From the NCBI GenBank assembly GCA_964532505.1, contig CAZHIF010000003.1, positions 21,237 to 85,236 of the forward strand: a stretch of DNA of 64,000 nt, in the 5' to 3' direction. The notes under the pieces are model-generated. The model saw only the letters and a list, made by a program, of their open reading frames with translations. It did not search any database and was not told the DNA's origin. The translations under genes and the position numbers were made by a program. Positions 14,501 through 44,880 of the stretch are shown here, piece after piece (the stretch's first letter is position 1; the number at the start of each line of letters is the position of its first letter). The stretch is from an uncultured Candidatus Peribacteria bacterium (GTDB taxonomy: Bacteria > Patescibacteriota > Gracilibacteria > CAIRYL01).

Positions 14501-16859
14501 TCAAAACACTGGAGAAATACTCAACACATCATCTCAAGAAGAAGGCAATGCCACAAAAAATGCTTCACCCGAAATAAAAATGGGGAAAGCAGATCGGGAT
14601 AAAAAATTAGAAGAGTATAATAATAAAGTAGCCGATCTCAAAAAAAAGATAACCGATATTGAAAAAATTATAAAAGAAACACAAAATTTGCCCAACAATA
14701 TGGTTGAAAAAATACAAAAAACCATAAAAGATTGTAATGCCATTATGGCGTATGGAAGGCAAAAAATTGCGACAGAAAACCTCACAGCAGAACAAGCCAC
14801 AAGCATTATTATACAGCTAAGCAATCGACAGCCAATCGATGAAAATGGCGATAAAAAAGTGGAAAAAAAGGATAGCACTTCAGTGGAAGGAGTTTTGAAT
14901 GGAATCTTGAAAGCGATGAGTGATTTTCCTATAGACGAAAGAAGTGGCGTACAAAAATTTTGGAACAATGTAGAATTTTTGGCACTAGATGATCTGAAAG
15001 CACCTTGGAAAACACTAAAAGATTATATCAAACAACGATGGAGGGATCAGCAATCACTGAGAACCAATAAGGTATTTTCGAGTATTGTTCCAAAGTGGGG
15101 ATGGCTTACGGGGCTTGAAAATGAATTTAGTAATGCTGAGGAGGGTAGTCGTTCAAAAATTGTGAAAAAATATGCTGATGGAATCGCCAATGAAGAAAAT
15201 AGCTATATTTCAACAATCTTCCTTCCCAACGTGACAAATCCAGAAGCGTTGCTAGCGGCTGTGAAGCACTTGTGTAAAGGAGGGAATATGAAATGGGTAG
15301 AATCAGCAGGGAAAGCGGTGGCACAAAAACTTCAAGAATTTGGAAGCGGGGTAAAGTTTTATAATAGCGATTTTAAAGACGAGCTCGTAATGCGATTAAA
15401 ATTTAAAAAAGCATTTTATCGAGTATACGGAAAAGAAACGCTATACGATAAATTGTATACCGAAAATAAGGCCGCAAATGAAGGATCTGTGGAAAAAGGA
15501 ATAGATCAAGTAAGTAAACTTACCTATTCTGGAAGTGATCAGATTAGAGATTGGATACGGCAGAAATGTATATATAAAAAGGAGCCAAAAGAGTTTTATG
15601 TGAAAGGGCAAATATTGGAAGGGTTTATTATTGGAAATTATCTTGATGGAAATTTTGACAATCCAAACGAAGTAATTTTTTATATGATTATGGGAATTGC
15701 TCAAGGGATTATTGGGGCTGACGCTTGGGGAAGAGCTTGGGGGAAGGTGGGGTCAAATCCTCTATTTAATATTCTTAATGGATTTTCTGGAGACAAAGAG
15801 AAAATGATTGAATGGCAAAAAGAAATATTGTGGGATGAGCAAATGCAAGATTTCAGAAAACCATGGGATCCTCCGCCTCCTTGGTTTGATGCGTGGGTGG
15901 ATAATACATTGGTGGCCAATACTGTTACTGCTACTCGAGTGATGAAAACAGGGGCTCAAACGGTGAATTATGATCATGATAATACATATTTGATACTTTC
16001 TCATTCGTATGCAGAAGGAGCGGATCGTGTTTTGCAAAGTGGGTATGGAGGGCAAGAACAGCCCACTCGATTTAACAATATTCCAAGTGGAACGATGCGG
16101 GTTTTTACCAGCTTTGCTTTGAATAAAAAATCTAACGAAAAGGCTCCTTCTGAGGATTTTTTGAGACACATGGGGTATTACTCTACTATTTATGGATTAG
16201 GAGTTCTTGATAATAAAGAACCCGATAATCCAAACATTCGACGATATACATATGGAACAGAAGTGCTGCGGCAGAATCCTCGAGGAACAGGGAGGGGATA
16301 TAATTCAGATATGAAGATTAATGATTATTTTGTAGCACAAAATGAAATGTTTTTGAGCATGGCAAAAATTCCGAGTCAAGAACAGGGATTTGCAGCATTT
16401 TTGAACCTTCTCTATTCTCCAGAATCTCGAATGCTCACGAGTGAACAATTTGGAGAGGAACTCAAGAGAATATATGAATCATCTGCAACTTTTAGAGAAT
16501 CATTAGAGGGAATGAAAACTGATTTTAGAGGAAGGAATTCATATGTGTTCACGAGTATGGTGCCTGCAGTGTTTAAATATTATTTAACACCCAAAGGAGA
16601 TACAGAGCGTAAGCTGTACTCAAAAAAATCATCAGAATTAAACTATGCAGTTATGATGCAAACGATTGATGATATTTCATCGGGGAGGTACAATCCTGCT
16701 TGGGCAAATCAAAAAGACATGAGGGTTGTACATCCTCATTCTACGGCTGGATATCCCCCTCAAAGAGTTCCAGATGTATTTATGAAAAAAGAAAAAACAG
16801 CGTTGAGTTGGAACAAGGACGGATCTATGAATAAAAAAGATTTTACAAAAGCTGCATAA
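11586..16859 (+). CDS. giant hypothetical protein (1757 aa) with a single HEXXH (HEVGH) motif
   Basis: An uninterrupted 5.3-kb ORF starting 6 nt after the preceding gene. The N-terminal half is Lys/Glu-rich and coiled-coil-like. HEVGH lies at 14082-14096. I saw no signal peptide, TM segment or P-loop. Confidence 0.85.
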   Translation: MKIFLLSHFSGDEYTNSFVEHRRVRFADIEQNEGKNLQNREKSQDPITIEEEDKKNEIRDGIKKALQEPNEETKKKNIKELKDKYGQRVEKILEEDKEAGYWITEDVKTHDSVMNILEEKEKTEETSFLEFVKDAYIKDFSEIPKEKLSAFLAIPLPKALQLLEKNPEYKKKYLSFLKTLSSENKEVQKWVLSYTEKFTGEETAYVKLPVEAKEHFIRLHQEMLGKKGNKLIEAIEKHTKDDVQSIAEITKANASSEVQTEDELLQKIRQHFNDPVLLKTLKGISLRNNTENEKSLQSDMIDEVVKYVLQKQKENTEYTEAGIKALQRDYEALHQIIFETVGTVASSKKIEHLRIQLKETQENIQKLQEGLQNGFSKTGFLPNDSDDYKDAKKIDTFLQSFDSLSKKSFGETMINMRRAYEASIVEINAEKKQYRRTKNISSCLQNLQAKGISVDPQNLRAHFENQKQGDIPLEWITSLFALLPPERRNIDLKIYAPYIKNPLQHTEKIDPKMLAGILNAEPSAGLTYLYSKNNNIIATEAIVDHLEQSTSSLVNQLQYELQGKNSKEVIMEALERFSNPEFFENIYKKLSLIFNEIENTIKTNLEKNPTLKANMLWEFGQKKTKIPMLPLDRIDWKQGASQFLLEMQDFLKSENPKNAEDIIQIMNQSADVLEDRMLMPWQKKLFEVKKYSQDPETWQKKLDADVYAEKNPSSAYNSLHAESQSVEIHEKHFKALQEAFLIASRGEGFSLNGTLALQNLLNQKTKTGTPLIIPRNFNNSEEKVILMNQESASYNRTTGQIEISHDLYNALKNFKNNEAPYNLTEKGLGALWHEVGHLLVDSISHANQISDQKNISELVPSFADMVKGKMGAEKYAQLIAKATPLITGDPAFAEEELCIMLWEFLQISPEKRATTQYAENSLGRIVQEIFRNVGEKSIRDFFMTKVQQLIMENAKTMPQYFTYPKKEQRLYNQNTGEILNTSSQEEGNATKNASPEIKMGKADRDKKLEEYNNKVADLKKKITDIEKIIKETQNLPNNMVEKIQKTIKDCNAIMAYGRQKIATENLTAEQATSIIIQLSNRQPIDENGDKKVEKKDSTSVEGVLNGILKAMSDFPIDERSGVQKFWNNVEFLALDDLKAPWKTLKDYIKQRWRDQQSLRTNKVFSSIVPKWGWLTGLENEFSNAEEGSRSKIVKKYADGIANEENSYISTIFLPNVTNPEALLAAVKHLCKGGNMKWVESAGKAVAQKLQEFGSGVKFYNSDFKDELVMRLKFKKAFYRVYGKETLYDKLYTENKAANEGSVEKGIDQVSKLTYSGSDQIRDWIRQKCIYKKEPKEFYVKGQILEGFIIGNYLDGNFDNPNEVIFYMIMGIAQGIIGADAWGRAWGKVGSNPLFNILNGFSGDKEKMIEWQKEILWDEQMQDFRKPWDPPPPWFDAWVDNTLVANTVTATRVMKTGAQTVNYDHDNTYLILSHSYAEGADRVLQSGYGGQEQPTRFNNIPSGTMRVFTSFALNKKSNEKAPSEDFLRHMGYYSTIYGLGVLDNKEPDNPNIRRYTYGTEVLRQNPRGTGRGYNSDMKINDYFVAQNEMFLSMAKIPSQEQGFAAFLNLLYSPESRMLTSEQFGEELKRIYESSATFRESLEGMKTDFRGRNSYVFTSMVPAVFKYYLTPKGDTERKLYSKKSSELNYAVMMQTIDDISSGRYNPAWANQKDMRVVHPHSTAGYPPQRVPDVFMKKEKTALSWNKDGSMNKKDFTKAA

Positions 16860-19042: not shown

Positions 19043-19636
19043 TTACATTTCCACAAAATGCCTCAAAATGCTCAACCCCTCTTTTCCGCTTTTTTCTGGG
19101 TGAAATTGCACTCCCCAAATATTTTTTTGCTGAATCGCCGAACAGAATGAAAAGTTTTCATACACGGTGGAAGCAATCGTTTTGCTGGAGTCAAATGGAT
19201 CACAGTAATAGGAGTGCACAAAATAAAAATCGGTTTTTTGGGGAGTATTTTCGAAAAGAGGATTTTCTGTGTGTGTAATTTCGTTCCAACCCATATGCGG
19301 AACGATGTGTACAAGATTTTGATCAAATTTTTTCACACTTCCTGAAATGATTCCAAGGCATTTGGTATCTCCTTCTTCAGAAAAATCAAAAAGCATCTGC
19401 ATCCCCACACAAATTCCCAACACAGATTTTTCTGTCGTTTTGAGAAACGCATCAAATCCTCTATTTTGTAATTCTTTCATGCAGCTTTTGGCATGTCCCA
19501 CTCCTGGGAAAATCACTTTTTCTGTATTTATCAGTGCATCAGGAGAAGAAGCTACTACAAAAGGGGTGCCAAGAGACTCCAGTGCATTACACACCGATTG
19601 CAGGTTTCCCGCATTATAGTCTATAATTCCGAGCAT
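19043..19636 (-). CDS. hisH: imidazole glycerol phosphate synthase, glutamine amidotransferase subunit HisH-like
   Basis: MLGIIDYNAGNLQSVCNAL, FPGVGH, LGICVGMQ (catalytic Cys), and VQFHPEKSG (His/Glu). Collinear with E. coli HisH as remembered. Confidence 0.9.
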   Translation of the reverse strand: MLGIIDYNAGNLQSVCNALESLGTPFVVASSPDALINTEKVIFPGVGHAKSCMKELQNRGFDAFLKTTEKSVLGICVGMQMLFDFSEEGDTKCLGIISGSVKKFDQNLVHIVPHMGWNEITHTENPLFENTPQKTDFYFVHSYYCDPFDSSKTIASTVYENFSFCSAIQQKNIWGVQFHPEKSGKEGLSILRHFVEM

Positions 19637-19844: not shown

Positions 19845-21437
19845 TTAGTACTTCTCTAATGCATCGATTAAGTCCAAAAGTGAATTTTTCTGCGTTTCCC
19901 AATTTTTATAAGAATTACTCTTTTTAAAATTCAAAGACTGATTACTTTCTTGCCCGAACAACGGATTAAAAACTTTTTCCAAATCCCAATTTTTAATTTC
20001 ATTTCGTAATATTTCAATGTCTGCCACTGGTATAAAATTTTTCGCTTTAATTGTAGATTGAAATTTTTTTACCTTCTTTTCCCATATTTTCATAGTCTTG
20101 TCGAGTTCTTCTGCAAGAAGCTTTTCTTTAGGTTTTTCATTATCCTCCGGATTGTCGGGATTTAAAAAATGTGAAGATGTAATATTGCTTGGACCACTAT
20201 GATAAAAATGTGGGTTTAATGCATTCTGGCCATGTTCTGGAGGAGTGCCTTTTCCTCTTTGTTTTTCAATAAACTGTCTTTCTAAAAAATCGTTGTTGAT
20301 AATGCGATATGCCAAAGGAATATATTCTGCAATTTCTTGTTCGTTAGGAATAAACTGCTTTAATGCTAAAAATTTTTTTGCGTTTTTTTGCAGTTGTAGA
20401 ATATTTTGCTGGGTGGCCTTTAAATGATCAGAATTGATTAATTTTAAATTTTTTCTAAATTTTTTAAATGATTGCTTCGCTATTCTTTCTGCATCTTCTG
20501 CAATCACTTCTAATATTTTTTGTTTATCTTTAGAAGAAACAGAAGATGATTTTTTTAAAAGATTCAATAGCATTTTTTCCTGCTGTTTTTTTGATTTTTT
20601 CTTTTTCTCTTTATCATTTGTTTTATTGGGGTCAAACTCATCAAAATATGTCAACCAATAGGCAGGATTTGCAGGTTCTTTCTTATGCGCCTCTTCTATT
20701 TGTCGAAAACTTTTTCCTTGACTATGCGCAACTGCTACATCGACTAGAGTATTAGAATTTTCTGGAGACGAAGAATGGGGAGCTCCCGAAGATGAAACTT
20801 CATTCACAGAATTTTCACCATTTGCATTTATTTTTTCATTTCGCCTGACTCCATCTTGCGCAGCATTAAGATTACTTTTCCTTTTTCTGAATTTTTGGAT
20901 TACATTTTCTATTCTTATTTTTTCACCATCCTCAGCCCTTTTTCCCAAACTGGTAAGATTTGAAATAATCGTGGCACACAGGTTTGTATCATTGCAATTT
21001 TCCACAGAAAGGTCTTCTAGTGCTGGAATAACTGAATCGACTAATTTTTGCTTCCAAGCAGCTGCCAATGTTTTTTTTGTTGACTCATCAAAATAATATT
21101 CATTCTCACCAAAAAGATCATTTGCCAGGGTTGCAAAGGTAGCAAGAGATTTAAAAACGGAATAAAAAGAAGAATTATCCATGGAAAAATCTTCGATCTC
21201 GGATTTTCTTTTCTCTGCAGAATTTTCTTGCAACTCTTCAACACCTGCTTGATCGGACGTATTAAGGGGAGTGGGAGTTTTATGATCGGCATTATGAGTA
21301 TTTTCTCTAAAGTTCAAAAACTCAAGAAGCCTAGTAGCATATGTTCTGGATTGCGAAACAATGCTCAAAATTGCAGGCTTAATATTGAGACGCGTATTGC
21401 TCGGTTGGATCGCCTCTGGTGTGTTATGCTTTTTCAT
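19845..21437 (-). CDS. hypothetical Lys/Glu/Asn-rich protein (530 aa), last gene of the ORFan operon
   Basis: A long ORF starting 15 nt after the upstream gene. No TM segment and no recognisable motif. Contains a KKKKSKKQQEK basic tract. Confidence 0.75.
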   Translation of the reverse strand: MKKHNTPEAIQPSNTRLNIKPAILSIVSQSRTYATRLLEFLNFRENTHNADHKTPTPLNTSDQAGVEELQENSAEKRKSEIEDFSMDNSSFYSVFKSLATFATLANDLFGENEYYFDESTKKTLAAAWKQKLVDSVIPALEDLSVENCNDTNLCATIISNLTSLGKRAEDGEKIRIENVIQKFRKRKSNLNAAQDGVRRNEKINANGENSVNEVSSSGAPHSSSPENSNTLVDVAVAHSQGKSFRQIEEAHKKEPANPAYWLTYFDEFDPNKTNDKEKKKKSKKQQEKMLLNLLKKSSSVSSKDKQKILEVIAEDAERIAKQSFKKFRKNLKLINSDHLKATQQNILQLQKNAKKFLALKQFIPNEQEIAEYIPLAYRIINNDFLERQFIEKQRGKGTPPEHGQNALNPHFYHSGPSNITSSHFLNPDNPEDNEKPKEKLLAEELDKTMKIWEKKVKKFQSTIKAKNFIPVADIEILRNEIKNWDLEKVFNPLFGQESNQSLNFKKSNSYKNWETQKNSLLDLIDALEKY

Positions 21438-21452
21438 TATAAAAAAATTATC

Positions 21453-22589
21453 TTATGCCATCACTGCATTTGGCAGTAATGATTTTCTGTTCTGTTTTCT
21501 TCTTTCTTTCATCTCACTTGCCTTTTCAAATAGTGATTTTGCGAGTCTTCCTTCCTTTATTTCTTGTGCAACACTTGTAAATGCTTTGTTGTATTTATCA
21601 GCAATATTTTTTCCCAAAAATAATCGAACGATGGATGAAGTTGGTCGTAAAATAAAAGCAGTTGTTGTATCTATTACATTATCTTTTGTTTCTTTGATAA
21701 TGGAAAAAAGATTTTTTAAAACTCCTTGGCTGTCTTTCACTTGCAAATTCCCATATTCTTTAATTTTTTTGTTTCGAGTAAGAAATCCAAGACCTTGCAT
21801 GGTTTTTCCAAAAGCTCTTCGGCCAAATTGACCCACTCCAGATAGCATAGTGTCGAGCTGAGCTCGAAAGCCATAATAGAGGACGGAGATTGCAGGTCCC
21901 ACAGAAATATCCCATAATACAGGCTTTTCTCCAAAAGGATTATCTTTATCTTTCCACACAGTGGAAACCCCTTTTCCTCCCACATGCTTCACGCCTTCCC
22001 AAGTTTTTTTCAGACCCCAAGAAACTCCTGCTTGTCCGAATTCGTTTCCTTCTTTTCCCCTCCATGTATATTTAAGCCCTTTCCATCCATGGTGCGCTGC
22101 GTCTCGAATAACTGGTGCGGCCAATGCTGCAGCTCCTCCTGCTATCACCATTTCTCCAACCCCTGCACCTGCTAACGCAGCTGTTCCTGCACCCAATGCT
22201 GCAGGAACTCCAATGGTTGAAGTTGCCAATGGCATACTTGCACCAACGGCGGCGCCGACACCTCCACCTAATGCATATCCAGCAGCTGCGTAAGGGACAA
22301 TGCTCCCTACTACACCAATTGCTGCCAATGTTTTTTCCCCAACACCACTTGCTTGTTTAAATTGTTCAACTCTTTTTTGTATTCCTGCTCCTGTGAGAAG
22401 TTTCATTACACTTGATTGATACTTAGCTCTTTGAGGATTTACACCTGACTGAGGTGATTGTGCTGCAGCTACAGATGCAGCGGGAGCAGTGGCAGCCTGA
22501 GGAGAACCTGCAGGAGCAGGTGGTGTTTTGGAAGGCGTGTTAGGAGGTGTATTGTATGCAAGCCGACGCTCAAGAAACATTCCATTCAT
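21453..22589 (-). CDS. hypothetical membrane protein (378 aa) with a Pro/Ala-rich N-terminus and Gly/Ala-rich hydrophobic core
   Basis: NTPPNTPSKTPPAPAGSPQAATAPAAS is followed by about 80 aa of G/A-rich hydrophobic sequence (nt about 22095-22330), then a basic soluble C-terminus. Confidence 0.75.
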   Translation of the reverse strand: MNGMFLERRLAYNTPPNTPSKTPPAPAGSPQAATAPAASVAAAQSPQSGVNPQRAKYQSSVMKLLTGAGIQKRVEQFKQASGVGEKTLAAIGVVGSIVPYAAAGYALGGGVGAAVGASMPLATSTIGVPAALGAGTAALAGAGVGEMVIAGGAAALAAPVIRDAAHHGWKGLKYTWRGKEGNEFGQAGVSWGLKKTWEGVKHVGGKGVSTVWKDKDNPFGEKPVLWDISVGPAISVLYYGFRAQLDTMLSGVGQFGRRAFGKTMQGLGFLTRNKKIKEYGNLQVKDSQGVLKNLFSIIKETKDNVIDTTTAFILRPTSSIVRLFLGKNIADKYNKAFTSVAQEIKEGRLAKSLFEKASEMKERRKQNRKSLLPNAVMA

Positions 22590-22665
22590 AGTGTTTTTTT
22601 AATTTATTATATTTTAAAATTTTTATTTATAAAATGCAATTATTTTTTCTGAATTATGTAGCGGA

Positions 22666-24657
22666 TCAAGACTTACTCCATCCTTTTTTGATCATCTCCC
22701 ATAATATTTCGGATATTCCATGTTCTGTAATCTTCCCCAAAAGGCCAGAACCGCCTGAAGATTCTGAGTTAGAGGTAGAAGATGGAGATTGCGCCGCTTC
22801 TGCTGTTTCAAAATTGTGAGTCCATTGATTATATCCATCAAATTTACGACTAAAGGTAAGAGAAAGAGCATTATTTGTTGTTAATATTTTTACAATTATA
22901 GATTTTAACCCCCCTTTCGCAGTATCCGAGTTAATAGCCTGCAAAAATCTAGACTTGGCACTTTCTTCTAAAGAATTATAAGTCGTTTGCAGGTTTATCT
23001 TTTCTGCAATTTCATTAGTATAAGTTCCATTAAAAATAGCATCATTAAATTCGTTTTCAAATTGCGATATATAAGAATTTGCCGCTTCTGGATTCTTCGA
23101 TTGCAAAGCATTAAAAACACTCAACATTGAATCTGCAGAATTTGTTGTGTTTCCATAATCATTGCGAATACTGGTTGCATTATCATTTAAAAACCTTTCC
23201 CAAGCATCTTTTTTATACAGCTTCTTTTTTTCATCGGTAGAAATATATTTTACAATTTCTCTTCTAAGCATAAGATCATTGGATTCCATAATCTTTTCAA
23301 CCCAAGGTTTGTTTTTAGCCCAAAGGCTTTTTTTTCTATCTGATGCAGAGGTATACGGATCAACCTTAAAATTTGCAGTTCTTCCAATAAGCGCCAACCT
23401 ATCCAAAATCTCGTTAGGAGTCATATGCAATGCTGTTTCATTTTGGAATATCCAGTGGGTTTTTCTTTTTTTCTCCCTTTTATACAAAAACGCATTCCAT
23501 CCGGTTGTCACCCCTGTTTCATTTTCTTGATTCAACAATTCTTTCATAAACTGCATTCTTCCTTTTTTCCCCAAATCAAAATGGCTTCTTTTTTCATCCC
23601 AAGTCATATTTTTAATACGTTTAGTAGACAAAAAAGGCACCTTTTCTGAAAGTGTTGTAAATGCTTTTTGTCCATCAGCCTCATCTTGCGCTAAAATCTT
23701 CTGAAACAGGGTAAAAAATCTTTCAATATCAGGATCATTTTCTAGCCTATGTTTATCAACTTTTTGAGTGTTTTTCAGAAGCCCATGAACCACCGCACCA
23801 GCTCCAACAGCTCCAGCCACTCCCAAAGAAACAACCGGAATGGATGCCATTGCAGCAGTTACCCCTGCTCCCACCATCAATGTTTTTGAAGTATTACTCC
23901 ACAATCGTAAAGACATTAAGTCATTCTTAACATTCGTAATAGTAGACTTAATAGTATTTATTCCTTCTTTTTTCAAAGGATTCACATTGATTCCAGAAAT
24001 GGATAAATGTGATATCATATTTCGAACGGCAATAATCCCTCCTGCTATTGCTGCAGTAGCAGGGGTAAGCGCAAAGAAAGGAAGGCTCAATACTAACAAA
24101 AATTGCAAAATAATAAGAAGTCGATTCCTCCATACAGAATCTTTTCCTTTCAGTAGTTGAGCTACTCCAATTGCACCTCCAGACAACAATAAGCCAATAG
24201 CATTCACATCGCCAGGCAACAAACCAATTGCCGCACCAATTCCCACAATAGTGGATATGATAATAGGGGAAAATACTCCATCTTTTCCAAAACGAGTCAA
24301 AAAATCATCAATAGTAAATCCCCCTTCATATTTTTTTGCCTGATTACTTTCATGAAAAGCATTTATTAAACCAGAACCAATAGCTAATCCTGGAGGTAAG
24401 GCAAGAGCTCCATGAAAATAACCACGAAAAGATTCAATAACACCATTCACTGCATTTTTACCTCCTTCTAACAGAGTCTTTCCCACCTCAGAAAAAGGAA
24501 GTTCATCACTGGGGATCCCCACACCTCCTGTAGTAGCATTATCTATAGGAGTTCCAAAATCAAAAGTAGGATTCAAGATACTACTTTCAACTACTGGATC
24601 TGCCGGTGGACAAGCTATTGTTTGTCCTGTCGCATTTTTACAGTATAATGTTTCCAT
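22666..24657 (-). CDS. hypothetical polytopic membrane protein (663 aa) with a large soluble C-terminal domain
   Basis: The N-terminal half has several Gly/Ala-rich hydrophobic helices (nt about 23780-24275). The C-terminal roughly 350 aa are hydrophilic. No recognisable motif. Confidence 0.8.
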   Translation of the reverse strand: METLYCKNATGQTIACPPADPVVESSILNPTFDFGTPIDNATTGGVGIPSDELPFSEVGKTLLEGGKNAVNGVIESFRGYFHGALALPPGLAIGSGLINAFHESNQAKKYEGGFTIDDFLTRFGKDGVFSPIIISTIVGIGAAIGLLPGDVNAIGLLLSGGAIGVAQLLKGKDSVWRNRLLIILQFLLVLSLPFFALTPATAAIAGGIIAVRNMISHLSISGINVNPLKKEGINTIKSTITNVKNDLMSLRLWSNTSKTLMVGAGVTAAMASIPVVSLGVAGAVGAGAVVHGLLKNTQKVDKHRLENDPDIERFFTLFQKILAQDEADGQKAFTTLSEKVPFLSTKRIKNMTWDEKRSHFDLGKKGRMQFMKELLNQENETGVTTGWNAFLYKREKKRKTHWIFQNETALHMTPNEILDRLALIGRTANFKVDPYTSASDRKKSLWAKNKPWVEKIMESNDLMLRREIVKYISTDEKKKLYKKDAWERFLNDNATSIRNDYGNTTNSADSMLSVFNALQSKNPEAANSYISQFENEFNDAIFNGTYTNEIAEKINLQTTYNSLEESAKSRFLQAINSDTAKGGLKSIIVKILTTNNALSLTFSRKFDGYNQWTHNFETAEAAQSPSSTSNSESSGGSGLLGKITEHGISEILWEMIKKGWSKS

Positions 24658-24675
24658 TTTGGATTTTTATTTATT

Positions 24676-27600
24676 TTAAGGAGATGAAGGAGGAGGTGTA
24701 ATTCCAATGCTATCAATAAAAGCTTTAAAATCCTTTACGTCTACATATATATCATTAAATTCTGTTTGCAAAGTTGAGAGGCTCGCTGATTGTTCTGAGG
24801 TAGCTTCTCTCCAAATAGCAAAAACTTTTTTAGTATTTTCTAACGTTTCATTAAATCTTCTACCTATTTCATCTGCATTCAACAATTGTGCACTTGCTGC
24901 ATTTTTTTCTGCATCGGTAGCCTTAGGGGTAGGTTTTCTTTCTTTAATTGTAGCATATAACTTATTGAGATTTGTTTGAATAATAATCATTTCATTTTTT
25001 TTCTCTTGCAGAGTTGCCAATAAATTTAATGCCATTTCTTTTGCCTTTTCCTTTCCAATTTTTGGCACAAGACTTTTCAAATCACCTTTGGCATCTACTT
25101 CATTCTCCGCCCAAGAGGTATCTGTCTTCATATTTTCCACAAAAGCATTTTCTAATTCTGCAACCGAAATAATAATTCCTGAATCACTCAATTCTTTTGC
25201 CCTATCTTCCAATGGGGATTTTTGAGTGGTTGGATCTTTTTCTTTCAATTTCTTCATAATATTGGGAATGGTTGGAAGTTCTTTAATCATCTTGTCAACA
25301 TACTCTGTTGTTTGCAGAGAAACTAATGGACCAGTGCTGTTAAACTTTCCTTTTTCAATTCCTGCGCCCACCGCTTGCATTCCCAAGAAATTAGCAATTT
25401 CTGTACCCGCAGCTGGAACCGCATTCCACGCATTTCGCAAATATCCAACGGAAGAAACCGCATTGGCAATAGCTCCTCCTTGAATCACTTGCATCACTTC
25501 CGAGCTGGTAATATTTCCCCATTGCACAGGCTTATCATCTGCGGTAGGGCTGAATGTTCCTTCTATTATCCCTGCCTGTGCCTTGCTGATAATCGAGGTT
25601 CGAATATTTTTAATTTCTGCAAAGAATGCAGTTTCATCTGGAACAATTGCATTGATAAATGCATCCCATTGACTAGGTGACATATTTCCTCGAATCCCGT
25701 ATGCTTGGATAATAGCGCTTTGAATTTCTTGATTGCTGATATAATCTTTCAAGGCAACTTTGAAAGCATCTTGGGTATTGCCGTTAGGAGAAATGGGCGT
25801 TGCGTTTGCATTTAAAGCATAATTTGCAAGCGGATCAACAGCGCTTGTTTTTAGCCAATTGAGCACTCCCATAATAGCATCTGGACTGGCTTTCAGCGCA
25901 TCATTAGTAATTTCAAGACCTTTTCCAGTAAGCATAAATGGTAGCTTGATAATCCAAGGAGCATTATCATATTTTTCCACAATAAATTTCGTTGCTTCAT
26001 TGGTCCCATCCCAAAACACCAATTCATCACCAGCTCCTTCCCACACCTTGTATCCCATTTTTTGCACAAAAGCGAGCATGTCTTTTCCTTCTTTTGAAAG
26101 GTCAATGCCAAAATTCTGTTCAAATTCATCAAATTTTCGAGCCATAAATCCACTTGTTACCCCCCACAACTCTGACAAATCGGCAATCATTTGAGATTTT
26201 CCTTCTTTTACCATTTTTTCCTGTTTTGCAGTTACCTCCGATGCAAAAATAATATCCATATTGAATTTCCCACTATTTTGCAAAAGTCGAGCTTCTGCTG
26301 TATTTCCAAGATAGGTATCTCGAATATATCCAAATCCATTTTCGGGACTTGCTACATCGTTTGGATGTTCTTTGTTATTGGCACTTACGTGCATAAAAAA
26401 GTTTTCTAAATATTGATACATCGCCTTTGCTTTATAGCTTTCGGAATTTTCTCCTGCTGGTGCTTTAATAAATCCTAATGCTTTTTTTGCAATTTCATTT
26501 TCACAAATAATATTAAAAGGATGGAGTTTATATTTTTCTTTTTCAGAAAGAGTGCTTTGAGAAACATTCTCATACCATTGTAATGCAACACTTGGATCAA
26601 TTCCTTTCAAAGCCATTCCTGCAAACAGCCTATCTCTTTTGTCAATTTCATATTTCCCCCATCGCTTATCCATTCCCTCTGCTCTTTCCATAAACATTCC
26701 CACGGGATCTGTGGTTGAAATTTCTTCTCCCAACGCATACCGCTCTGCATCATCCCACATATTACTCCCTTTTATATTTTCATAGAGATCGGAAGATGCC
26801 ACTCCAACAAGCGTCGCAATTCCCGCCCCCATGGCAATTTTTCTTCCTTTTTTCGTCATCAATAAAAGCACTGCCAAAGCCACCATCACTCCTGTACCTT
26901 GCATTTCTCCATTGGTGGCATAGTCTTTCAATTCTCCAAAAAATGTTGAAAGATTTCCTTGCGCATTTGCTTCTTTTCCAAATTTATCAAGCACATCTTC
27001 AGGGCTAGCACTTCCTGTTGCTCCTGTTGTATTTTGCCTTTCTTTGATATATCCTCGAATTTGTTGTATAAATGATGGAAGTTGATTTTGGGGAATTTGA
27101 GAAAGCCTTTGAGATCCCACTGCAAATAAAAGAAACTGCTGAATCACAGGATTTGAGGGGTTCCATTGTTCAGCCAACAAAATCTTTCTTTCGTCTTGGC
27201 TTGCTGTGGTAAAAAATTCAAGATATTTGGCATATATAAACCCTGCTTTCACCCCATACTGTTTTTCAAACATGGATTCTTGAGAAATTTCTCCTTTTTG
27301 GTCTAAATTCACTTCTCGATAGCTTCGCAATGCATTATAAAAATTATCCCTTTCGGAAGCATTGAGAGCATGCGCCCAATAGAGATTTGCATCTATTGTA
27401 AATTTTTTAATAAGGAATTCTTTTTTCTGTGGATTTTGCTCGTTTATAATGGCGCCAATATCTCCATAAAACTTAGCAGTAAATGGCATGTTATGGTTTG
27501 AATCTGCTTCATAGACGGCAATATTTTGCAAAAGACGATGTAGTGAAGCGGCAGGAACTCCTCCTGCTTCAGATGCGTAAATTAAGAATGATTTAGTAGA

Positions 27601-29226
27601 AGCATCAGGTGGAGCTGCAAGATTAGAAAAAATAACCTTCTCTAGTTCCGTGTGTACATGCGCCATTTCCTTGAGCGCAAGATTGGTATTCAGATTTCCT
27701 TTATCGTCAATCAATTCAGAATGGAGTATAACTCCAGTATCCACCTCAGACCGTCCCGCATGTTGTTTTTTTAAGATGCGTAATTGATCTTTGAAATATG
27801 CAATTTTTTGTGCAGCCAACTCCCTATCTTGTTTTGTTTGCTCTGCTATTTCTGGGTTATTGGAAATCTTTGTTGAAATTTTTTCGAGCTGCTCAATATA
27901 TTTCTCTACTTGTTGCATCATGACCACCTCATTTGTCAAATGATTTCCATTTTTATCAATCTGAAATCCATTGATAGTGTGTCCAACGAAAGAAACAAGT
28001 TTTTGGAATACTTCTGGCTGATAACTAATAGAAAGCATTCCAAATCGTTCTGCTAAGGTGTTGGTATCAGAAAAATGCAATCCATGAGTCTCTGCAATAT
28101 CGTTTCGTATTGCAGTTGCCTTGCCATATTCTTCATTACTAGATATAGGATTTGACACTGTTTCTCCTGCCAATTGCAGTGCGCTATTCATCTGAAATTG
28201 TTTTTGCTTTTCCTTCAACAATGAACGATAAATCGCCTCCATTCGATTCAAAAAGTCATTAGCACTTTCTGATAAATGAGGCTCATTCCCAGGATTTGGA
28301 TTGGTGAGTGTTTGCTGTGATTGTTTCCACTTTGTAATTTTTTTATCCACTTCATTTCTTATATTCGAAATTTTTCTCAATCCTTCCCAAATTTTATTAT
28401 CCGTAAAGGGGCTATCATTAGCCCTTATGGCATTTAAATCATTTATAAAAGTCTGCAGCTCATATTCTCTTTCTTGCCTCCATTTCTCATCAGAAGTATT
28501 TCTATCGCTATGTAAATCTATCGGAATAATCCACAGTATATGATTTGCAAAACTTCTAGCGCCATAATCCCACACCTTTTGCGCCTCAATGGCATTGGCA
28601 GCTCGTTGATTTTGCAAAAATTCCAATTCACTTTTATAAGTCTCTGCATCTCTCTTAAAATCAGCTTTTAACACTTCTGCATCTTTTGGAGAATGAGTCC
28701 TCAATTCATTCATCCCAGAAACCAATACTTGATCTCCTCTCACATATAACTTCTTAAATCCTTCATCAAAATCTGCCTCGCTGAGCTGTTGCCCTGTATA
28801 AAAAGACTGAGAAGCATTTTGCTGTGATTGAGAATGTCGCACCTTCCATCCCTCAACTGCCACCATTCCAACCCAAGAAAGATAGCCTTTGCGCTGTTCA
28901 TCCGAAAGGCTATTGGCATATCCCATGAGTTTTTCTGAAAAATCTTTTTCCAAAAAAACATCAAAAGATCCGTGCCAAGTGTTTGCAGGTGTAGGATTAT
29001 ATTCGCGGCGCAGATTCGCATTTTGCGCTTGAATTCTTTCTTGATATCTTGACAACCCAATTCTAGCCCGCTCCTGTTGTTGTTGATAATATATCGCTTG
29101 CTGAGCTTCTTCCTCTGGAGATCGATACAACCTTCCTCTTTCTGGAGACGCAGAAAGAGGCGATGGCTGATTCTCCCACGCCCTCCGTGCTTCATAAAAC
29201 CAATGCTGTTGTGATGGTAATATCAT
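24676..29226 (-). CDS. giant hypothetical protein (1516 aa) with a central paired hydrophobic hairpin, first gene of the ORFan operon
   Basis: An uninterrupted 4.55-kb ORF with no signal peptide. The only hydrophobic region is GVMVALAVLLLMTKKGRKIAMGAGIATLVGVA at nt about 26795-26910. No P-loop or catalytic motif seen. Confidence 0.85.
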   Translation of the reverse strand: MILPSQQHWFYEARRAWENQPSPLSASPERGRLYRSPEEEAQQAIYYQQQQERARIGLSRYQERIQAQNANLRREYNPTPANTWHGSFDVFLEKDFSEKLMGYANSLSDEQRKGYLSWVGMVAVEGWKVRHSQSQQNASQSFYTGQQLSEADFDEGFKKLYVRGDQVLVSGMNELRTHSPKDAEVLKADFKRDAETYKSELEFLQNQRAANAIEAQKVWDYGARSFANHILWIIPIDLHSDRNTSDEKWRQEREYELQTFINDLNAIRANDSPFTDNKIWEGLRKISNIRNEVDKKITKWKQSQQTLTNPNPGNEPHLSESANDFLNRMEAIYRSLLKEKQKQFQMNSALQLAGETVSNPISSNEEYGKATAIRNDIAETHGLHFSDTNTLAERFGMLSISYQPEVFQKLVSFVGHTINGFQIDKNGNHLTNEVVMMQQVEKYIEQLEKISTKISNNPEIAEQTKQDRELAAQKIAYFKDQLRILKKQHAGRSEVDTGVILHSELIDDKGNLNTNLALKEMAHVHTELEKVIFSNLAAPPDASTKSFLIYASEAGGVPAASLHRLLQNIAVYEADSNHNMPFTAKFYGDIGAIINEQNPQKKEFLIKKFTIDANLYWAHALNASERDNFYNALRSYREVNLDQKGEISQESMFEKQYGVKAGFIYAKYLEFFTTASQDERKILLAEQWNPSNPVIQQFLLFAVGSQRLSQIPQNQLPSFIQQIRGYIKERQNTTGATGSASPEDVLDKFGKEANAQGNLSTFFGELKDYATNGEMQGTGVMVALAVLLLMTKKGRKIAMGAGIATLVGVASSDLYENIKGSNMWDDAERYALGEEISTTDPVGMFMERAEGMDKRWGKYEIDKRDRLFAGMALKGIDPSVALQWYENVSQSTLSEKEKYKLHPFNIICENEIAKKALGFIKAPAGENSESYKAKAMYQYLENFFMHVSANNKEHPNDVASPENGFGYIRDTYLGNTAEARLLQNSGKFNMDIIFASEVTAKQEKMVKEGKSQMIADLSELWGVTSGFMARKFDEFEQNFGIDLSKEGKDMLAFVQKMGYKVWEGAGDELVFWDGTNEATKFIVEKYDNAPWIIKLPFMLTGKGLEITNDALKASPDAIMGVLNWLKTSAVDPLANYALNANATPISPNGNTQDAFKVALKDYISNQEIQSAIIQAYGIRGNMSPSQWDAFINAIVPDETAFFAEIKNIRTSIISKAQAGIIEGTFSPTADDKPVQWGNITSSEVMQVIQGGAIANAVSSVGYLRNAWNAVPAAGTEIANFLGMQAVGAGIEKGKFNSTGPLVSLQTTEYVDKMIKELPTIPNIMKKLKEKDPTTQKSPLEDRAKELSDSGIIISVAELENAFVENMKTDTSWAENEVDAKGDLKSLVPKIGKEKAKEMALNLLATLQEKKNEMIIIQTNLNKLYATIKERKPTPKATDAEKNAASAQLLNADEIGRRFNETLENTKKVFAIWREATSEQSASLSTLQTEFNDIYVDVKDFKAFIDSIGITPPPSSP

Positions 29227-29294
29227 TTTCTATTGTTTTATTTTTTTTTAAAGAAAAAAAATTTCAGACCATTATAGCATGCTTTTCTTATCTA

Positions 29295-29323
29295 TTGCAA
29301 TATTTCTTTATTTTTGATAACAT
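29295..29323 (+). promoter_or_regulatory. candidate sigma70-type promoter for the small exported-protein/pilin-like cassette
   Basis: TTGCAA (29295-29300), a 17-nt spacer, then TAACAT (29318-29323), about 30 nt upstream of the ATG at 29354. It lies inside the 127-bp AT-rich divergent intergenic region. Confidence 0.3.
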
Positions 29324-29353
29324 AAACAGAAAAATAATTTTTTTTAAATATAT

Positions 29354-29857
29354 ATGAATATCAAACTTCATGACTTTCGAATATTAGGATTCATTTTGGC
29401 ATTTGGAAGTGTCCTTGGGCTTTCGCTTTTCGCCTTTCCGTCGTTTCAAAAAGCAGATTTTTCCGATGCCTCATCGCACACAAGCTTTATTTCTAGTGCC
29501 GAAACAATTCGAAAAAAAGTAGTCCCATTTTCCTCAGAAAATTCTATCACTCTCACACTTCCAGCAACGCCCAAAGAAATCTCAATCCTTCCTAAAGGAA
29601 TCATTTTTAATACTTCTTCTGAAGAAATTTTGAGAATGGAGAATTTTCCAGCCTTTGGGCTGGAAGTACTTTCAACCATGGAAAACACTCGAGCCGCAGC
29701 AAAAGAAGCTATAAAAGGTGTTATTTTAGAGCAAAATTCTAGCGGAGAAGTGTCTGGGCGTATTTTGTTTGAGAAAGCACCTCCTTGGTATACTGAATAT
29801 GTGATGCATTGGAATAATAAAAAAACTATCCCCCTCGAAATCGTCCCAGCTAAATAG
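29354..29857 (+). CDS. small exported or signal-anchored hypothetical protein (167 aa)
   Basis: N-terminal hydrophobic segment ILGFILAFGSVLGLSLFAF, then a hydrophilic domain. It is the first gene of the cassette divergent from the ORFan operon. Confidence 0.6.
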   Translation: MNIKLHDFRILGFILAFGSVLGLSLFAFPSFQKADFSDASSHTSFISSAETIRKKVVPFSSENSITLTLPATPKEISILPKGIIFNTSSEEILRMENFPAFGLEVLSTMENTRAAAKEAIKGVILEQNSSGEVSGRILFEKAPPWYTEYVMHWNNKKTIPLEIVPAK

Positions 29858-29866
29858 TAGAAGTAT

Positions 29867-30262
29867 ATGCGCTTTCTTTTTTCTTTTCTATTGGCATTCG
29901 GATTAGGATTCGGAGCATTCGCCGAAAACACCCAAAATTCGGCAACCGCACCTGTCGACGTGATCTACCATGAAAGCATTCATCAAGTCGATGTAAATGA
30001 TTTTGGGAACCTTTCACCCATCACCAGTGTGGGTGAGGTGATGCAAAAACTCTTGAATATCATGATGACGCTTTTGGGAAGCCTTGCTCTTTTGGGAATG
30101 ATTGTGGGTGGAGTGATGATGATGGGAGAAGGAATCAACGACGGACAAGCCAAAAAAGGAAAACAAATCGTACTCTATTCTGCCATTGGAGTTGTCGTTG
30201 CTATTTCGTCTTTGATCATCGTTACCCTCGCACAAACCATATTTTATTATTTTGGAACATGA
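29867..30262 (+). CDS. VirB2/TrbC-like (T4SS pilin-like) small membrane protein
   Basis: Signal peptide MRFLFSFLLAFGLGFGAFA, then two TM helices (LLNIMMTLLGSLALLGMIVGGVMMM and IVLYSAIGVVVAISSLIIVTLA). They are separated by a short charged loop, GEGINDGQAKKGKQ. Confidence 0.6.
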   Translation: MRFLFSFLLAFGLGFGAFAENTQNSATAPVDVIYHESIHQVDVNDFGNLSPITSVGEVMQKLLNIMMTLLGSLALLGMIVGGVMMMGEGINDGQAKKGKQIVLYSAIGVVVAISSLIIVTLAQTIFYYFGT

Positions 30263-30729
30263 CAAGATTTTTCTCGCTTTTGTTGATACTTATTTTCTTG
30301 GGAGTAAATCTTTTGGTCAGCACCTCTTCTTTGGCAGATTGCACAACAAATCCAAATGGAGCAGGATGTTCTGCCACGGTAAATAATGGACTCAATCAAA
30401 CCAATGGAACTATTATTCTCCGAGAACCTCTTTTGCCAGGGAAAAACATAATTGATGTTTCGGCAAGCCAAGGAACGTTGGGCATTGTTTCGCAATATAT
30501 CAAAATGGTGTATCAATATATGCTAGCAGCAGGGAGCCTGATTGGCATTATTTCTTTAATGTTTGCAGGAGTGCAAATGATGGTGTCGGCAGGTGATTCG
30601 AAAGCCATGGGGGAAGCGAAAAAAATCATCACTACCACCTTTCAAGCTCTAGCAATTTTATATCTTTCCGGACTCATCTTGTATGTAATCAACCCAACGT
30701 TTTTTACCTTTGGAGGAGGAAGTAGCTAA
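30259..30729 (+). CDS. VirB2/TrbC-like (T4SS pilin-like) small membrane protein, paralog
   Basis: ATGA start/stop overlap with the previous gene. Signal peptide ...LLVSTSSLA, then two TM helices (LAAGSLIGIISLMFAGVQMMV and TFQALAILYLSGLILYVI) flanking the loop SAGDSKAMGEAKK. Confidence 0.6.
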   Translation: MTRFFSLLLILIFLGVNLLVSTSSLADCTTNPNGAGCSATVNNGLNQTNGTIILREPLLPGKNIIDVSASQGTLGIVSQYIKMVYQYMLAAGSLIGIISLMFAGVQMMVSAGDSKAMGEAKKIITTTFQALAILYLSGLILYVINPTFFTFGGGSS

Positions 30730-31985
30730 TCGCTCACACCTTGTGCCACTTCCGAAGGCGGAATGGCCGCATCCGCTCCTTTGATTGTCCAAACCCCTCT
30801 GGCCTGATAGGGAGAAAAGAATTTATCAGTATAGAGTTCCTTCTTCTGCTCCAGCACATCTCGATAGAAATATGCATCAAACCCCACCACTTCATGCGAC
30901 ACTACTTGTGTTTGCCCTGGCGCGAGGTCTTCTGAAATAGTGGTTTTGGGAGCTGGCGGATTTCTATAGTTTTTAATAATCGGTCCAAAAATATACACAT
31001 CTCTATCAGGCGCTGTTCCATAATAATGAAAAAACAATTCTTGATTTCCACGCCCCCCTCTTCTGGTTTGCATCAAAAGCGCATTTCCTGTTGTATTTTT
31101 AAATTTAAAATCTTTAGATCCTACATAAATGGTAGCATCACTTCCTGGTGGATCGTAATACCTTACCGAATAAGAATGATTAAACCTCTCCACTATTTCC
31201 ACACCTGCTAGCATAGCCCCTCTGTAGGCGGTGGAAGAAACCTGACATAACCCTCCACCATAGTCTGGAACTACTTTTTGCCCCAAAATAACAAGTTCTT
31301 TCACATACCCAGCTGCTGCGTTCACCGCCCCAAGCCTATCAGTAAACGAAAACACTGCATCTTTAGGGATAATATATCCATTAAATTTATTCGCCCCTGT
31401 CATCACATTATGCACACGGCCTCCCGACGACCCAGAAAAATCTGATCGCCCTACAGCCACCAACTCTTTAATTCCCATCTGCTTCAATTCTTCATCATCC
31501 ACGGTAACCGTTGGAGCAATGATATCCACTTCCAAATTCACAAACCCAATATTTTCCTGAATAGCAGCAGCAATCAGTTTTGCAGAATTAGCAATTTGCA
31601 AAGTTACCCCATTCTGAGCATATCCTTCAAATTGGATATTCTTTTTCTTATCTCGAAAAATCCGCACATCTTTTTTTTCTTGATTAATCTGCGGAGCAAT
31701 AACTTTTGAAAGATATGCTTCAATGGCAGGCAAATCTACACTACTTGAAGAAATGGCCTGAGGAGAAACGTCTTGTGGGGCGTCTTCGGCAATGCAAAAA
31801 GGATCATTTGCTATCGATTTGACGATAGTCGTGCTTTTTAAAAACTTTTCAGGATTGGAAAGAATAAAATGCTGATATTCATACTTTAAGCGAATTTCTT
31901 TTGGTACTTCAGCAAAAACAGGGGCTGATGCCACTATTCCAAAAATTGAAAAAAACAAGAAAAAAGAAAGACGGAATGTTTGCAC
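30726..31985 (-). CDS. VanW family protein (exported)
   Basis: Signal peptide MQTFRLSFFLFFSIFGIVASAPVFA. VanW core: GYVKELVILGQKVVPDYGGGLCQVSSTAYRGAMLAGVEIVERFNHSYSVRYY. Confidence 0.85.
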   Translation of the reverse strand: MQTFRLSFFLFFSIFGIVASAPVFAEVPKEIRLKYEYQHFILSNPEKFLKSTTIVKSIANDPFCIAEDAPQDVSPQAISSSSVDLPAIEAYLSKVIAPQINQEKKDVRIFRDKKKNIQFEGYAQNGVTLQIANSAKLIAAAIQENIGFVNLEVDIIAPTVTVDDEELKQMGIKELVAVGRSDFSGSSGGRVHNVMTGANKFNGYIIPKDAVFSFTDRLGAVNAAAGYVKELVILGQKVVPDYGGGLCQVSSTAYRGAMLAGVEIVERFNHSYSVRYYDPPGSDATIYVGSKDFKFKNTTGNALLMQTRRGGRGNQELFFHYYGTAPDRDVYIFGPIIKNYRNPPAPKTTISEDLAPGQTQVVSHEVVGFDAYFYRDVLEQKKELYTDKFFSPYQARGVWTIKGADAAIPPSEVAQGVSD

Positions 31986-33482: not shown

Positions 33483-34385
33483 TTATATTTTTAGCATCAA
33501 AGTTCCATTCTGCTCAAACTCATCTTTGTTGATTGCATACATCACCGGAGCAAAATTTTCAAAAACCTGAACAGAATTGATTTCTTTTCCTTGTTTTTTT
33601 TCTGTTTGCCAAATCTGATTATATCGAAACCAATTTTCGTTGTGCTCTACAAAACAATGCTCTTTTTCTTCCACATGCCATTTGCTGGGCAAGTGTTGTG
33701 GAGATAAAATTCTTCCCTTGAGATATTTTTCTTCCACCCAAATGTTGAGCTGCAATGGGACCGAAAGTGTATTTTTGATCTGCAAATCTAAGAAATTATA
33801 TATCACCGTAGCACCACTCCCAAAAGGAATCACTCGTCCAGAATCTGGAAACACGTCAAGCGAATGATGATAGCGCTCCACGATTTCAACGGGTAAGTGT
33901 AAAAACATCCAGCAGAGCAGATTTGCCATTTGGCAAAGTCCTCCGCCCGCACCTTCCACCACTTTCCCTCCAGAAAGCAACATTCCATCCACAAATCCAT
34001 TAGAATAGGTGGGCGGACCAACTGATTCCCAAAAAGAAAAAATTTCTCCAGGATGAATAACGAGTCGATTGAGTTTTTCCGCTGCCTTTTGGAGATTGAT
34101 CACCTTTTGCTCTTGCAGCCGAGGATTAGAATCTCCCAAACGCCGACGCAAAACCGATTGATGGCGAACCAAAATGCTCGAAAACATTTCCTGTTGTTTT
34201 CTTTTGGAAATTGGTTTTTGTAGGTTTTTGAGGCTACGCCAGTGTTTTTTAATCGCCAAGATTGGTTTTTTCAAAAACGGATATTTTTTGGAAAGAGCTG
34301 TTCTTTTGGGAGAAAGGTGATGATGGAGAAGGTGGGTGATGCGAAATTTAAGGTCGAAAGAAGGCATAAAAAAACTGAATAACAA
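33483..34385 (-). CDS. VanW family protein (second copy, no obvious signal peptide)
   Basis: VanW core: GKVVEGAGGGLCQMANLLCWMFLHLPVEIVERYHHSLDVFPDSG. Confidence 0.8.
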   Translation of the reverse strand: MLFSFFMPSFDLKFRITHLLHHHLSPKRTALSKKYPFLKKPILAIKKHWRSLKNLQKPISKRKQQEMFSSILVRHQSVLRRRLGDSNPRLQEQKVINLQKAAEKLNRLVIHPGEIFSFWESVGPPTYSNGFVDGMLLSGGKVVEGAGGGLCQMANLLCWMFLHLPVEIVERYHHSLDVFPDSGRVIPFGSGATVIYNFLDLQIKNTLSVPLQLNIWVEEKYLKGRILSPQHLPSKWHVEEKEHCFVEHNENWFRYNQIWQTEKKQGKEINSVQVFENFAPVMYAINKDEFEQNGTLMLKI

Positions 34386-40183: not shown

Positions 40184-40424
40184 GCATTGGCTCTGATTTT
40201 TTCAGGTCAGAGTTTTACGGTCTTTTACATCATTGGAAAGAATTTTATGAGAAAAGAAAGAGAAGAAAAATCTTTCAATGAACGACATTAAATTATAACT
40301 ATTTCTTTTTGTTAACCACATAAGAAATTGCAATTTTTGTAAGTAATAAAAGGTTTTTCTCGAGCAAAATTCATCTCTTTTTGTTAAAAAAGAAAGAGGT
40401 GTTTGTCAAATGGAAAGAGCATTT

Positions 40425-43412
<2,988 letters not shown>

Positions 43413-43582
43413 TATTTGCTCTTTCGATGACTTCAAAGTGATCTCAAGTGCTTTTTGCTATTATAGTAAAAACTTGAGTAAAAGGTCCTTGAGACCCTTT
43501 GAGGGTTTGACAAACAGCCTCTTTGTTTTTACTCATAGGTTTCTTTCCTCTGATACTGACCGTTTTGTAAAAAAAAGGTCGT

Positions 43583-43701
43583 GTCTTGGTGGTTATAGAG
43601 GAGGGGGTACACCTGATCCCATTCCGAACTCAGCAGTTAAGTCCTCCATCGCCCATGGTACTTGGACCATAGGTCCTGGGAGAGTAGGTCGCCGCCAAGA
43701 C
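43583..43701 (+). rRNA. rrf: 5S ribosomal RNA
   Basis: GTCTTGGTGG...CCCATTCCGAACTCAGCAGTTAAG...GAGAGTAGGTCGCCGCCAAGAC. Helix I closes perfectly, and the sequence is collinear with bacterial 5S. Confidence 0.95.
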
Positions 43702-44876: not shown

Positions 44877-44880
44877 AAAA

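Follow-up and report, generated by a model that had tools for sequence, protein, structure and literature searches.

Four orphan genes divergently oriented to a VirB2-like pilin array in an uncultured Peribacteria-related bacterium

A stretch of 64,000 nucleotides from contig CAZHIF010000003.1, assigned to an uncultured Candidatus Peribacteria bacterium, was analysed around a locus of seven open reading frames (ORFs); the whole stretch is called the window below. Four long ORFs, encoding proteins of 1516, 663, 378 and 530 aa, lie on the minus strand and are referred to as the operon. Three small ORFs (167, 131 and 156 aa) lie on the plus strand, across a divergent intergenic region, and are referred to as the pilin cassette (Table 1). 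On its sequence, the plus-strand cassette is an ordinary VirB2-like pilin array of an already described Patescibacterial class. The orphan operon fits no family, and nothing shows that it has the status of a 'system'. The minus-strand genes are separated by spacers of 15, 76 and 18 nt (530/378, 378/663 and 663/1516 junctions, respectively), and the start of the 156-aa gene overlaps the stop of the 131-aa gene by 4 nt. All seven ORFs had been listed in an initial annotation made from the letters of the DNA, and their sizes, their spacing and the length of the divergent gap were exact on re-check. A correction concerns the end of the operon, where a 72-aa ORF and a hisH-like gene come next on the same strand. 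The reality of the 72-aa ORF as a gene is doubtful because the G+C content of its first codon positions (GC1) is 0.25.

Table 1 Features of the locus (positions are counted from the first nucleotide of the window)
Feature	Position	Strand	Remark
ORF, 530 aa	19845-21437	-	Fourth gene of the minus-strand operon
ORF, 378 aa	21453-22589	-	Third gene of the minus-strand operon
Candidate internal promoter, TTTATA-16-TATAAT	22606-22633	-	Consensus match only; within the 76-nt spacer, upstream of the 378-aa gene
ORF, 663 aa	22666-24657	-	Second gene of the minus-strand operon
ORF, 1516 aa	24676-29226	-	First gene of the minus-strand operon
Divergent intergenic region, 127 bp, AT-rich	29227-29353		Between the 1516-aa and 167-aa genes
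ORF, 167 aa	29354-29857	+	First gene of the pilin operon
ORF, 131 aa, VirB2-like T4SS pilin	29867-30262	+	PF18895 match
ORF, 156 aa, second pilin-like protein	30259-30729	+	Topology, sub-threshold PF18895 match

The lengths of the ORFs are far beyond chance expectation (local GC 38%). Reading frames were scored with a codon model trained on the housekeeping genes of the window, and for every ORF the in-frame codon log-likelihood was ahead of the two shifted frames, the margin being about 0.4-0.5 per codon. Synonymous codon usage was inside or marginally outside the housekeeping range. The G+C content of third codon positions (GC3) was somewhat lower than in the housekeeping genes (0.25-0.29 vs 0.34 +/- 0.04). 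The seven ORFs are clearly real coding genes with native codon usage.

The seven proteins were scanned against Pfam, NCBIfam, PHROGs and PADLOC at permissive thresholds, and meaningful matches were obtained for the pilins only. The 131-aa protein matched Pfam's pilin family for type IV secretion systems (T4SS) (PF18895, T4SS_pilin; E 2.6e-8, 34.2 bits for a curated cut-off of 26.6) and the TrbC/VirB2 family (PF04956, E 9e-4). It also matched the NCBIfam model Mbov_0395, which describes a pilin-like protein of a mycoplasma integrative and conjugative element, with a score that falls short of the cut-off of this model (E 2e-4). The 156-aa protein matched PF18895 below the 26.6 cut-off (E 5e-3, 17.3 bits) and is a probable member of this family. 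In both proteins, a signal peptide precedes two hydrophobic helices with a short charged loop between them. The hydrophobic segments are at aa 1-19, 62-80 and 101-119 in the 131-aa pilin and at aa 4-22, 87-105 and 123-141 in the 156-aa pilin. The two VirB2/TrbC pilin topologies proposed in the initial annotation were confirmed by hydropathy and, for the 131-aa protein, by the PF18895 match as well. The single strong hydrophobic helix of the 167-aa protein is N-terminal (signal peptide or signal anchor); no family was found in Pfam or NCBIfam for its other part, a domain of some 135 aa. The transmembrane (TM) helices of the three proteins were unmistakable on a Hessa-type scale.

Arrays of this kind have been described in Patescibacteria. 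VirB2-like pilins were reported in 1,948 assemblies, with virB4 close by in only 1,135 (Quinonero-Coronel et al. 2025, PMC12102498), and in about 40% of the assemblies such pilins are found away from virB4 (PMC12102498). The same survey counted 441 arrays of 2-11 copies with a mean identity of 25%, sometimes split by one non-pilin gene (PMC12102498). In Gracilibacteria, the parts of the T4SS are typically dispersed, the TrsD and VirB3 genes being mostly detached from virB4, and VirB6 homologues are undetectable, 'suggesting extreme sequence divergence' (PMC12102498). The cassette resembles these arrays in its two tandem small proteins with a signal peptide and two helices; the 131-aa protein scores above the PF18895 cut-off. 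A single non-pilin gene precedes the two overlapping pilin genes, whose products share 23% identity (vs the reported 25%). The chromosomal site and the absence of a relaxase are further points in common. The remark in the initial annotation that the locus matches none known therefore does not hold for the cassette.

No VirB4 or VirD4 gene was found in the window or in about 8 kb past either end (about 80 kb in total), and the extensions held only housekeeping genes. The early observation that no ATPase or coupling protein is encoded nearby stands for this whole interval. It is not anomalous for the clade, since detached pilin arrays are documented (PMC12102498). The T4SS cluster of Southlakia epibionticum contains its pilin series, which is essential (PMC10633639). 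The present array differs from those of Saccharimonadia, where the pilins are inside the T4SS cluster, in that no virB4 or other T4SS gene occurs within about 80 kb.

The hydropathy profile of the 663-aa protein makes it almost certain that this protein is integral to the membrane. Its first 55 or so residues are acidic; a hydrophobic Gly/Ala-rich region (about aa 80-295, i.e. about 215 residues) and a basic helical C-terminal domain of about 370 aa come after them. A signal peptide is absent. TM topology was drawn from simple hydropathy scales, with no trained predictor. A VirB6-type channel would be expected to have five or more TM helices. On the summed Hessa-type score, the segment at aa 180-198 was strong (-0.8), the segment at aa 129-147 was fair (+1.5) and four to five others were marginal (+2.2 to +4). 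AlphaFold2 models were made from single sequences for this protein and for the 167-aa protein of the cassette. They were all-alpha or alpha/beta and of low confidence: the predicted local distance difference test (pLDDT) score was 39.7 for the all-alpha model of the 663-aa protein, too low to use, and 48.3 for that of the 167-aa protein, which was likewise unusable.

The VirB6 analogues of monoderm bacteria (PrgH of pCF10, ConG of ICEBs1 and TcpH of pCW3) have a polytopic N-terminal half and a large soluble C-terminal domain. The 663-aa protein may be comparable to them, in gross architecture only; it shows no sequence or profile similarity to them and has no adjoining VirB4. Its putatively polytopic N-terminal half, its large soluble C-terminal half and the adjoining pilins nevertheless raise the question of whether the ORFans (the four orphan ORFs of the operon) make up an extremely diverged T4SS membrane platform. 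The 663-aa protein would then be the 'missing' VirB6/ConG/TcpH-type channel, the others would be VirB3-, VirB8- or TrsD-like and the 167-aa protein would be VirB8/PrgL-like. The reported absence of VirB6 from Gracilibacteria and the dispersal of T4SS parts (PMC12102498) agree with such a platform, which we still consider improbable. Profiles of TrbL/VirB6, PrgH, PrgI, VirB8 and VirB4 were unmatched by the ORFans and the 167-aa protein even at E<=1, and at the same threshold the 663-aa protein matched neither PF04610 (TrbL/VirB6) nor related conjugation-protein profiles in Pfam and NCBIfam. A tblastn search of 72,556 plasmids gave no match for the platform and, for the 663-aa protein, none at E<=0.1. 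Its gene is not located with a virB4, none being present within about 80 kb, and the protein was a singleton in the word-indexed search described below. A core part of the machine should recur in related genomes, and none was found there.

The 1516-aa protein (170 kDa) is acidic and has no signal peptide. It contains one short hydrophobic helical hairpin, with arms at aa 777-791 and aa 797-811 and the loop KKGRK. On the Hessa-type scale, the arms are about 15 residues long each, which is too short for crossing the bilayer. Both flanks of the hairpin are acidic (pI 5.9 and 5.0) and the loop is strongly basic. Because of the short arms, the basic loop and the acidic flanks, a monotopic anchor on the cytoplasmic leaflet would be a better fit than a hairpin across the membrane. 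The giant's hairpin region (aa 762-808) was aligned with the core of the 378-aa protein (aa 93-141) at 39% identity over 49 residues; homology of the two was rejected, as the match was significant in a tiny search space only and was driven by Gly/Ala composition. Independent Logan assemblies of the sequencing runs SRR11582163 and SRR11582162 (loci L001, L014 and L015) were 99.98-100% identical to the window. Their contigs stop inside the giant gene from both sides, at 24923-28463, and these breaks could reflect low coverage or strain-level variation of the middle part.

The 378-aa protein is basic (pI 10.1), contains 12% glycine and has no signal peptide. A Pro/Thr/Ala-rich N-terminus precedes a 75-aa Gly/Ala 'glycine-zipper-like' core (aa 86-160), and the C-terminal half is basic and rich in Trp, Gly and Lys. 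The core is dense in small-xxx-small repeats and is bordered on either side by positively charged regions. It was marginally hydrophobic only and never reached a classical TM score on the Hessa-type scale. Given the basic flanks, hairpins whose two ends are cytoplasmic are favoured by the positive-inside rule. The initial annotation had stated that none of the four proteins contains the motif GxxxxGK[ST]. This is incorrect to the letter, because GRRAFGKT at aa 256-263 of the 378-aa protein is a literal GxxxxGKT. The occurrence is probably due to chance, since no NTPase profile was matched and the protein is Gly-rich. The 530-aa protein is soluble, rich in Lys, Asn and Glu, and has zero hydrophobic segments and no signal peptide. 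The Cys content of the four large proteins is very low (1, 2, 0 and 2 residues), and no internal repeats were found in the proteins. Gly/Ala-rich hydrophobic segments had been noted in three of the four. They are there, but convincing TM segments occur in the 663-aa protein only, the segments of the 1516- and 378-aa proteins being marginally hydrophobic. Membrane association is well founded for the 663-aa protein; for the other two, the Hessa-type scores are only suggestive of it.

Membrane inserters that use hairpins or glycine zippers include colicin-type pore domains, translocators of type III secretion systems, chlamydial Inc proteins and glycine-zipper toxins. The likeness of the orphan proteins to them is one of composition: there is no signal peptide, the giant has a two-arm hairpin and the 378-aa protein has small-xxx-small repeats. 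They differ in that no profile of any such family was matched. These features, the short or marginally hydrophobic hairpins and the adjoining pilin genes would be expected if the ORFans, or at least the 1516- and 378-aa proteins, were T4SS substrates. Such substrates would be membrane-inserting or pore-forming effectors intended for the membrane of a host bacterium, their weakly hydrophobic hairpins avoiding the membrane of the producer, and extreme divergence would suit proteins engaged in an arms race. We consider this unlikely. No family of toxins or effectors was matched by the proteins, and a small gene of immunity type was not found either. The 663-aa protein has a strongly hydrophobic TM segment, as membrane proteins that reside in the producing cell typically do. 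A secretion signal is not definable, and the argument is one from composition. An extended version would make the operon and the pilins a lineage-specific contact apparatus, with the 663-aa protein as a diverged VirB6-type channel of Gracilibacteria/Peribacteria-type T4SSs and the 1516- and 378-aa proteins as a translocon/effector pair put by the pilus into the membrane of a host bacterium. This version is speculative and has little probability in our view.

Relatives of the orphan proteins were searched for at several depths. PHROGs gave nothing below E 0.006, and no match whatever for the 1516-aa protein. The PADLOC models of anti-phage defence gave zero matches for eight proteins at E<=0.1. 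No NTPase profile of Pfam or NCBIfam was matched by the seven proteins, which gave no sign of the P-loop domain of the T4SS ATPases VirB4, VirD4 and VirB11. A sequence search of the PDB with the four ORFans and the 167-aa protein returned nothing. The absence of any recognisable enzyme, ATPase or secretion component in the four ORFans, as initially annotated, is borne out by these empty profile, PDB and homology searches. A word-indexed search of 5.8 billion clusters retrieved the 663-, 1516- and 378-aa proteins themselves only. Residues 201-1400 of the giant were compared by exhaustive phmmer with 1.84 billion representatives of about 15 billion proteins, and only the giant itself was recovered. 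In this search, E=0.001 corresponds to about 41 bits. True orthologues with 20-25% identity across 1200 residues should score higher than this. Since only the query was returned, the giant is absent, or diverged past recognition, in all sampled proteins. The 530-aa protein was a singleton cluster at 90%, and a metagenome scan gave no relative of it. A metagenome scan with the pilin alignment also returned nothing.

Loci anchored on HflX were compared in eleven related metagenome-assembled genomes (MAGs), in which neither similarity to any of the seven proteins nor synteny was found. Neither the block nor any of its members was thus recovered from relatives, clusters or metagenomes, an outcome that the initial annotation itself had listed as contrary to its proposal. 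The nearest relatives are very distant. They are so remote that fast-evolving envelope proteins could have diverged past detection.

Promoters and terminators were scanned over 13.5 kb. The top sigma-70-like match of this region is in the divergent gap, on the minus strand (29300->29271), and reads TTGCAA-18-TATAAT with an upstream TG. It points at the 1516-aa gene. The -35-like hexamer TTGCAA (29295-29300) is self-reverse-complementary and could serve both directions; a consensus -10 partner is present on the minus strand only. No minus-strand terminator-like site was found inside the four-gene block. As a promoter-like site faces the giant gene and the block has no internal terminator-like site, one transcription unit is plausible, with a single long transcript and perhaps an internal promoter (Table 1).

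On one flank, the locus is bordered by genes for Der, TopA, SSB, PheS, TrpRS, HflX and a hisH-like glutamine amidotransferase, and on the other flank by genes for VanW, S6 (rpsF), S18 (rpsR), L31 (rpmE), tRNA-Lys, RsmB and S1 and by 23S-5S rRNA genes. The housekeeping character of the surroundings (hflX/hisH on one side, VanW and rpsF on the other) had been correctly recognised. Among GTDB species genomes, the best relatives of HflX were from Candidatus Peribacteria and Gracilibacteria MAGs (58-62% identity). S1 and SerA were 72% and 52% identical, respectively, to proteins of the same Peribacteria MAG, so that the nearest relatives stand at 52-72% in housekeeping proteins. The stops TAA, TAG and TGA are all in use, and the long genes are intact under code 11; the standard code is used. 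Judged by these protein similarities, the source organism is a Patescibacterium, i.e. a Candidate Phyla Radiation (CPR) member, of a poorly sampled lineage near Peribacteria/Gracilibacteria. Near-identical contigs were present in the two sequencing runs, SRR11582162 and SRR11582163.

Searches for an integrase, flanking repeats or a tRNA junction at the locus were negative, and DNA repeat matches were at chance level. No match was obtained by tblastn against the 72,556 plasmids or against phages, nor in scans of IMG/VR. The proposal that the locus is chromosomal rather than mobile is upheld by these results and by its native codons. It would be very surprising if the block were what is left of a prophage or mobile element, such as one that carried a tape-measure-like protein. 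The giant is indeed helical with an internal Gly/Ala hydrophobic segment, and the GC3 of the locus is slightly under that of housekeeping genes. Against this stand the absence of any PHROG, phage, plasmid or IMG/VR match, the housekeeping neighbours, the lack of an integrase, flanking repeats or tRNA junction, and the native synonymous codons.

The coding density is 88%, and genes on the same strand are commonly 6-25 nt apart. About 45% of the coding bases of the window are in ORFs without family assignment, and further ORFans (1757, 897, 319 and 298 aa) stand among housekeeping genes; ORFan blocks are the norm in this genome. It is quite possible, if on the unlikely side, that the adjacency of operon and cassette is coincidental. 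The ORFans would then be specific to the lineage and have nothing to do with pilins or cell contact, forming e.g. a cytoplasmic scaffold or a membrane-peripheral structure, and would be one of several accreted ORFan blocks. In addition to the family-less share of the window and its other large ORFans, the absence of synteny and homologues in the nearest relatives speaks for coincidence, as does the lack of a convincing TM segment or signal peptide in the giant and the 530-aa protein. The unusual Gly/Ala hydrophobic character common to three of the four proteins speaks against it, and so does the position of the best promoter-like element in the region shared with the pilin operon.

The remaining observations concern neighbouring genes. 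The ORFan operon is followed directly, on its own strand, by the hisH-like glutamine amidotransferase gene (19043-19636, minus strand), and no hisF was found nearby. A PdxS (SOR_SNZ) gene is located past the end of the window (L017 3985-4863). As the hisH-like gene stands alone without hisF and a PdxS gene follows past the window end, its product may be a PdxT-like partner rather than HisH. The first of two VanW-domain paralogues (30726-31985 and 33483-34385, minus strand) converges on the end of the pilin operon with a 4-nt overlap. The two paralogues are 1.5 kb apart and bracket rpsF-rpsR-rpmE and the tRNA-Lys gene. The second large orphan unit of the window is a 1757-aa ORFan (11586-16859, plus strand), without signal peptide, TM segment or family. 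The gene 6 nt before it (10152-11579, plus strand) encodes a protein with a cohesin domain, a signal peptide and an anchor at the C-terminus. The SSB gene (6866-7708, minus strand) encodes 280 aa with two SSB/OB domains instead of one. The 23S (40424-43416) and 5S (43585-43700) rRNA genes are on the plus strand. The rRNA genes are unlinked, as no 16S gene was found in 40 kb of upstream sequence. The match to the 23S model (2925 positions) is 2993 nt long, i.e. without a large insertion. A stretch of low GC (0.32; profile 44001-46000) comes right after the 5S gene, and two family-less ORFs are found at 43917-45777 on the minus strand, one of 319 aa with a signal peptide and one strong TM segment and one of 298 aa.

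We tentatively prefer, at somewhat less than an even chance, a reading in which the products of the ORFan operon assemble on the cytoplasmic membrane of the cell itself, as a lineage-specific complex that may share its regulation with the pilins. Operon and pilin cassette should best be treated as two separate neighbouring units. The pilins would presumably be inserted by the Sec pathway, and a T4SS of monoderm type, with VirB4 and partners encoded at another place in the genome, would polymerise them. The four operon proteins are native and, on this reading, lineage-restricted, fast-evolving and mostly helical. Because they have no signal peptides, their site of action would most likely be the producing cell's membrane, on its cytoplasmic face. 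The integral membrane anchor would be the 663-aa protein. The basic 378-aa protein would be inserted by Gly/Ala 'zipper' hairpins with both ends inside, and the acidic giant would be tethered through its short monotopic hairpin. The Lys-rich 530-aa protein would be a soluble partner. We infer the membrane topology, the assembly into a complex and any joint regulation or joint action of operon and pilins by way of the 127-bp promoter region between them.

Several points weigh against this lineage-specific membrane assembly. The shared divergent intergenic region is the sole link between operon and pilins, and the grouping of the seven genes as one system in the initial annotation had no other footing. 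Tight spacing and divergent promoters are weak evidence of a functional link, because they are common in an 88%-coding genome. No homologues were found that could point to selection on the block or on the way it is paired with pilins. The structure models were unusable at the scores given above, and topology was read from simple hydropathy scales. Marginal hydrophobicity without a signal peptide would be equally expected of translocated membrane effectors. The initial observation is thus confirmed and its interpretation is partly supported: the locus is a candidate, and no evidence of a new secretion or contact machine.

Large exported, cysteine-rich proteins have been stressed in Peribacteria genomes (PMC4736985). 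The operon is similar to the large hypothetical proteins of CPR bacteria and Peribacteria in its big genes annotated without function amid housekeeping genes of a small genome (PMC4736985). It is unlike the large Peribacteria proteins in that the four ORFans are without signal peptides and cysteine-poor. Without homologues, there is no comparative handle on the operon. The interest of the locus lies in the way Patescibacteria use a T4SS that bears a pilus and lacks a relaxase; VirB6 has been reported as missing from Gracilibacteria. The putatively polytopic 663-aa protein, encoded next to pilins, is a reasonable candidate for studies of Peribacteria-like T4SSs. To what has been described for these bacteria, the locus adds another VirB2-like pilin array that is detached and another block of CPR 'dark matter' that is not assignable.

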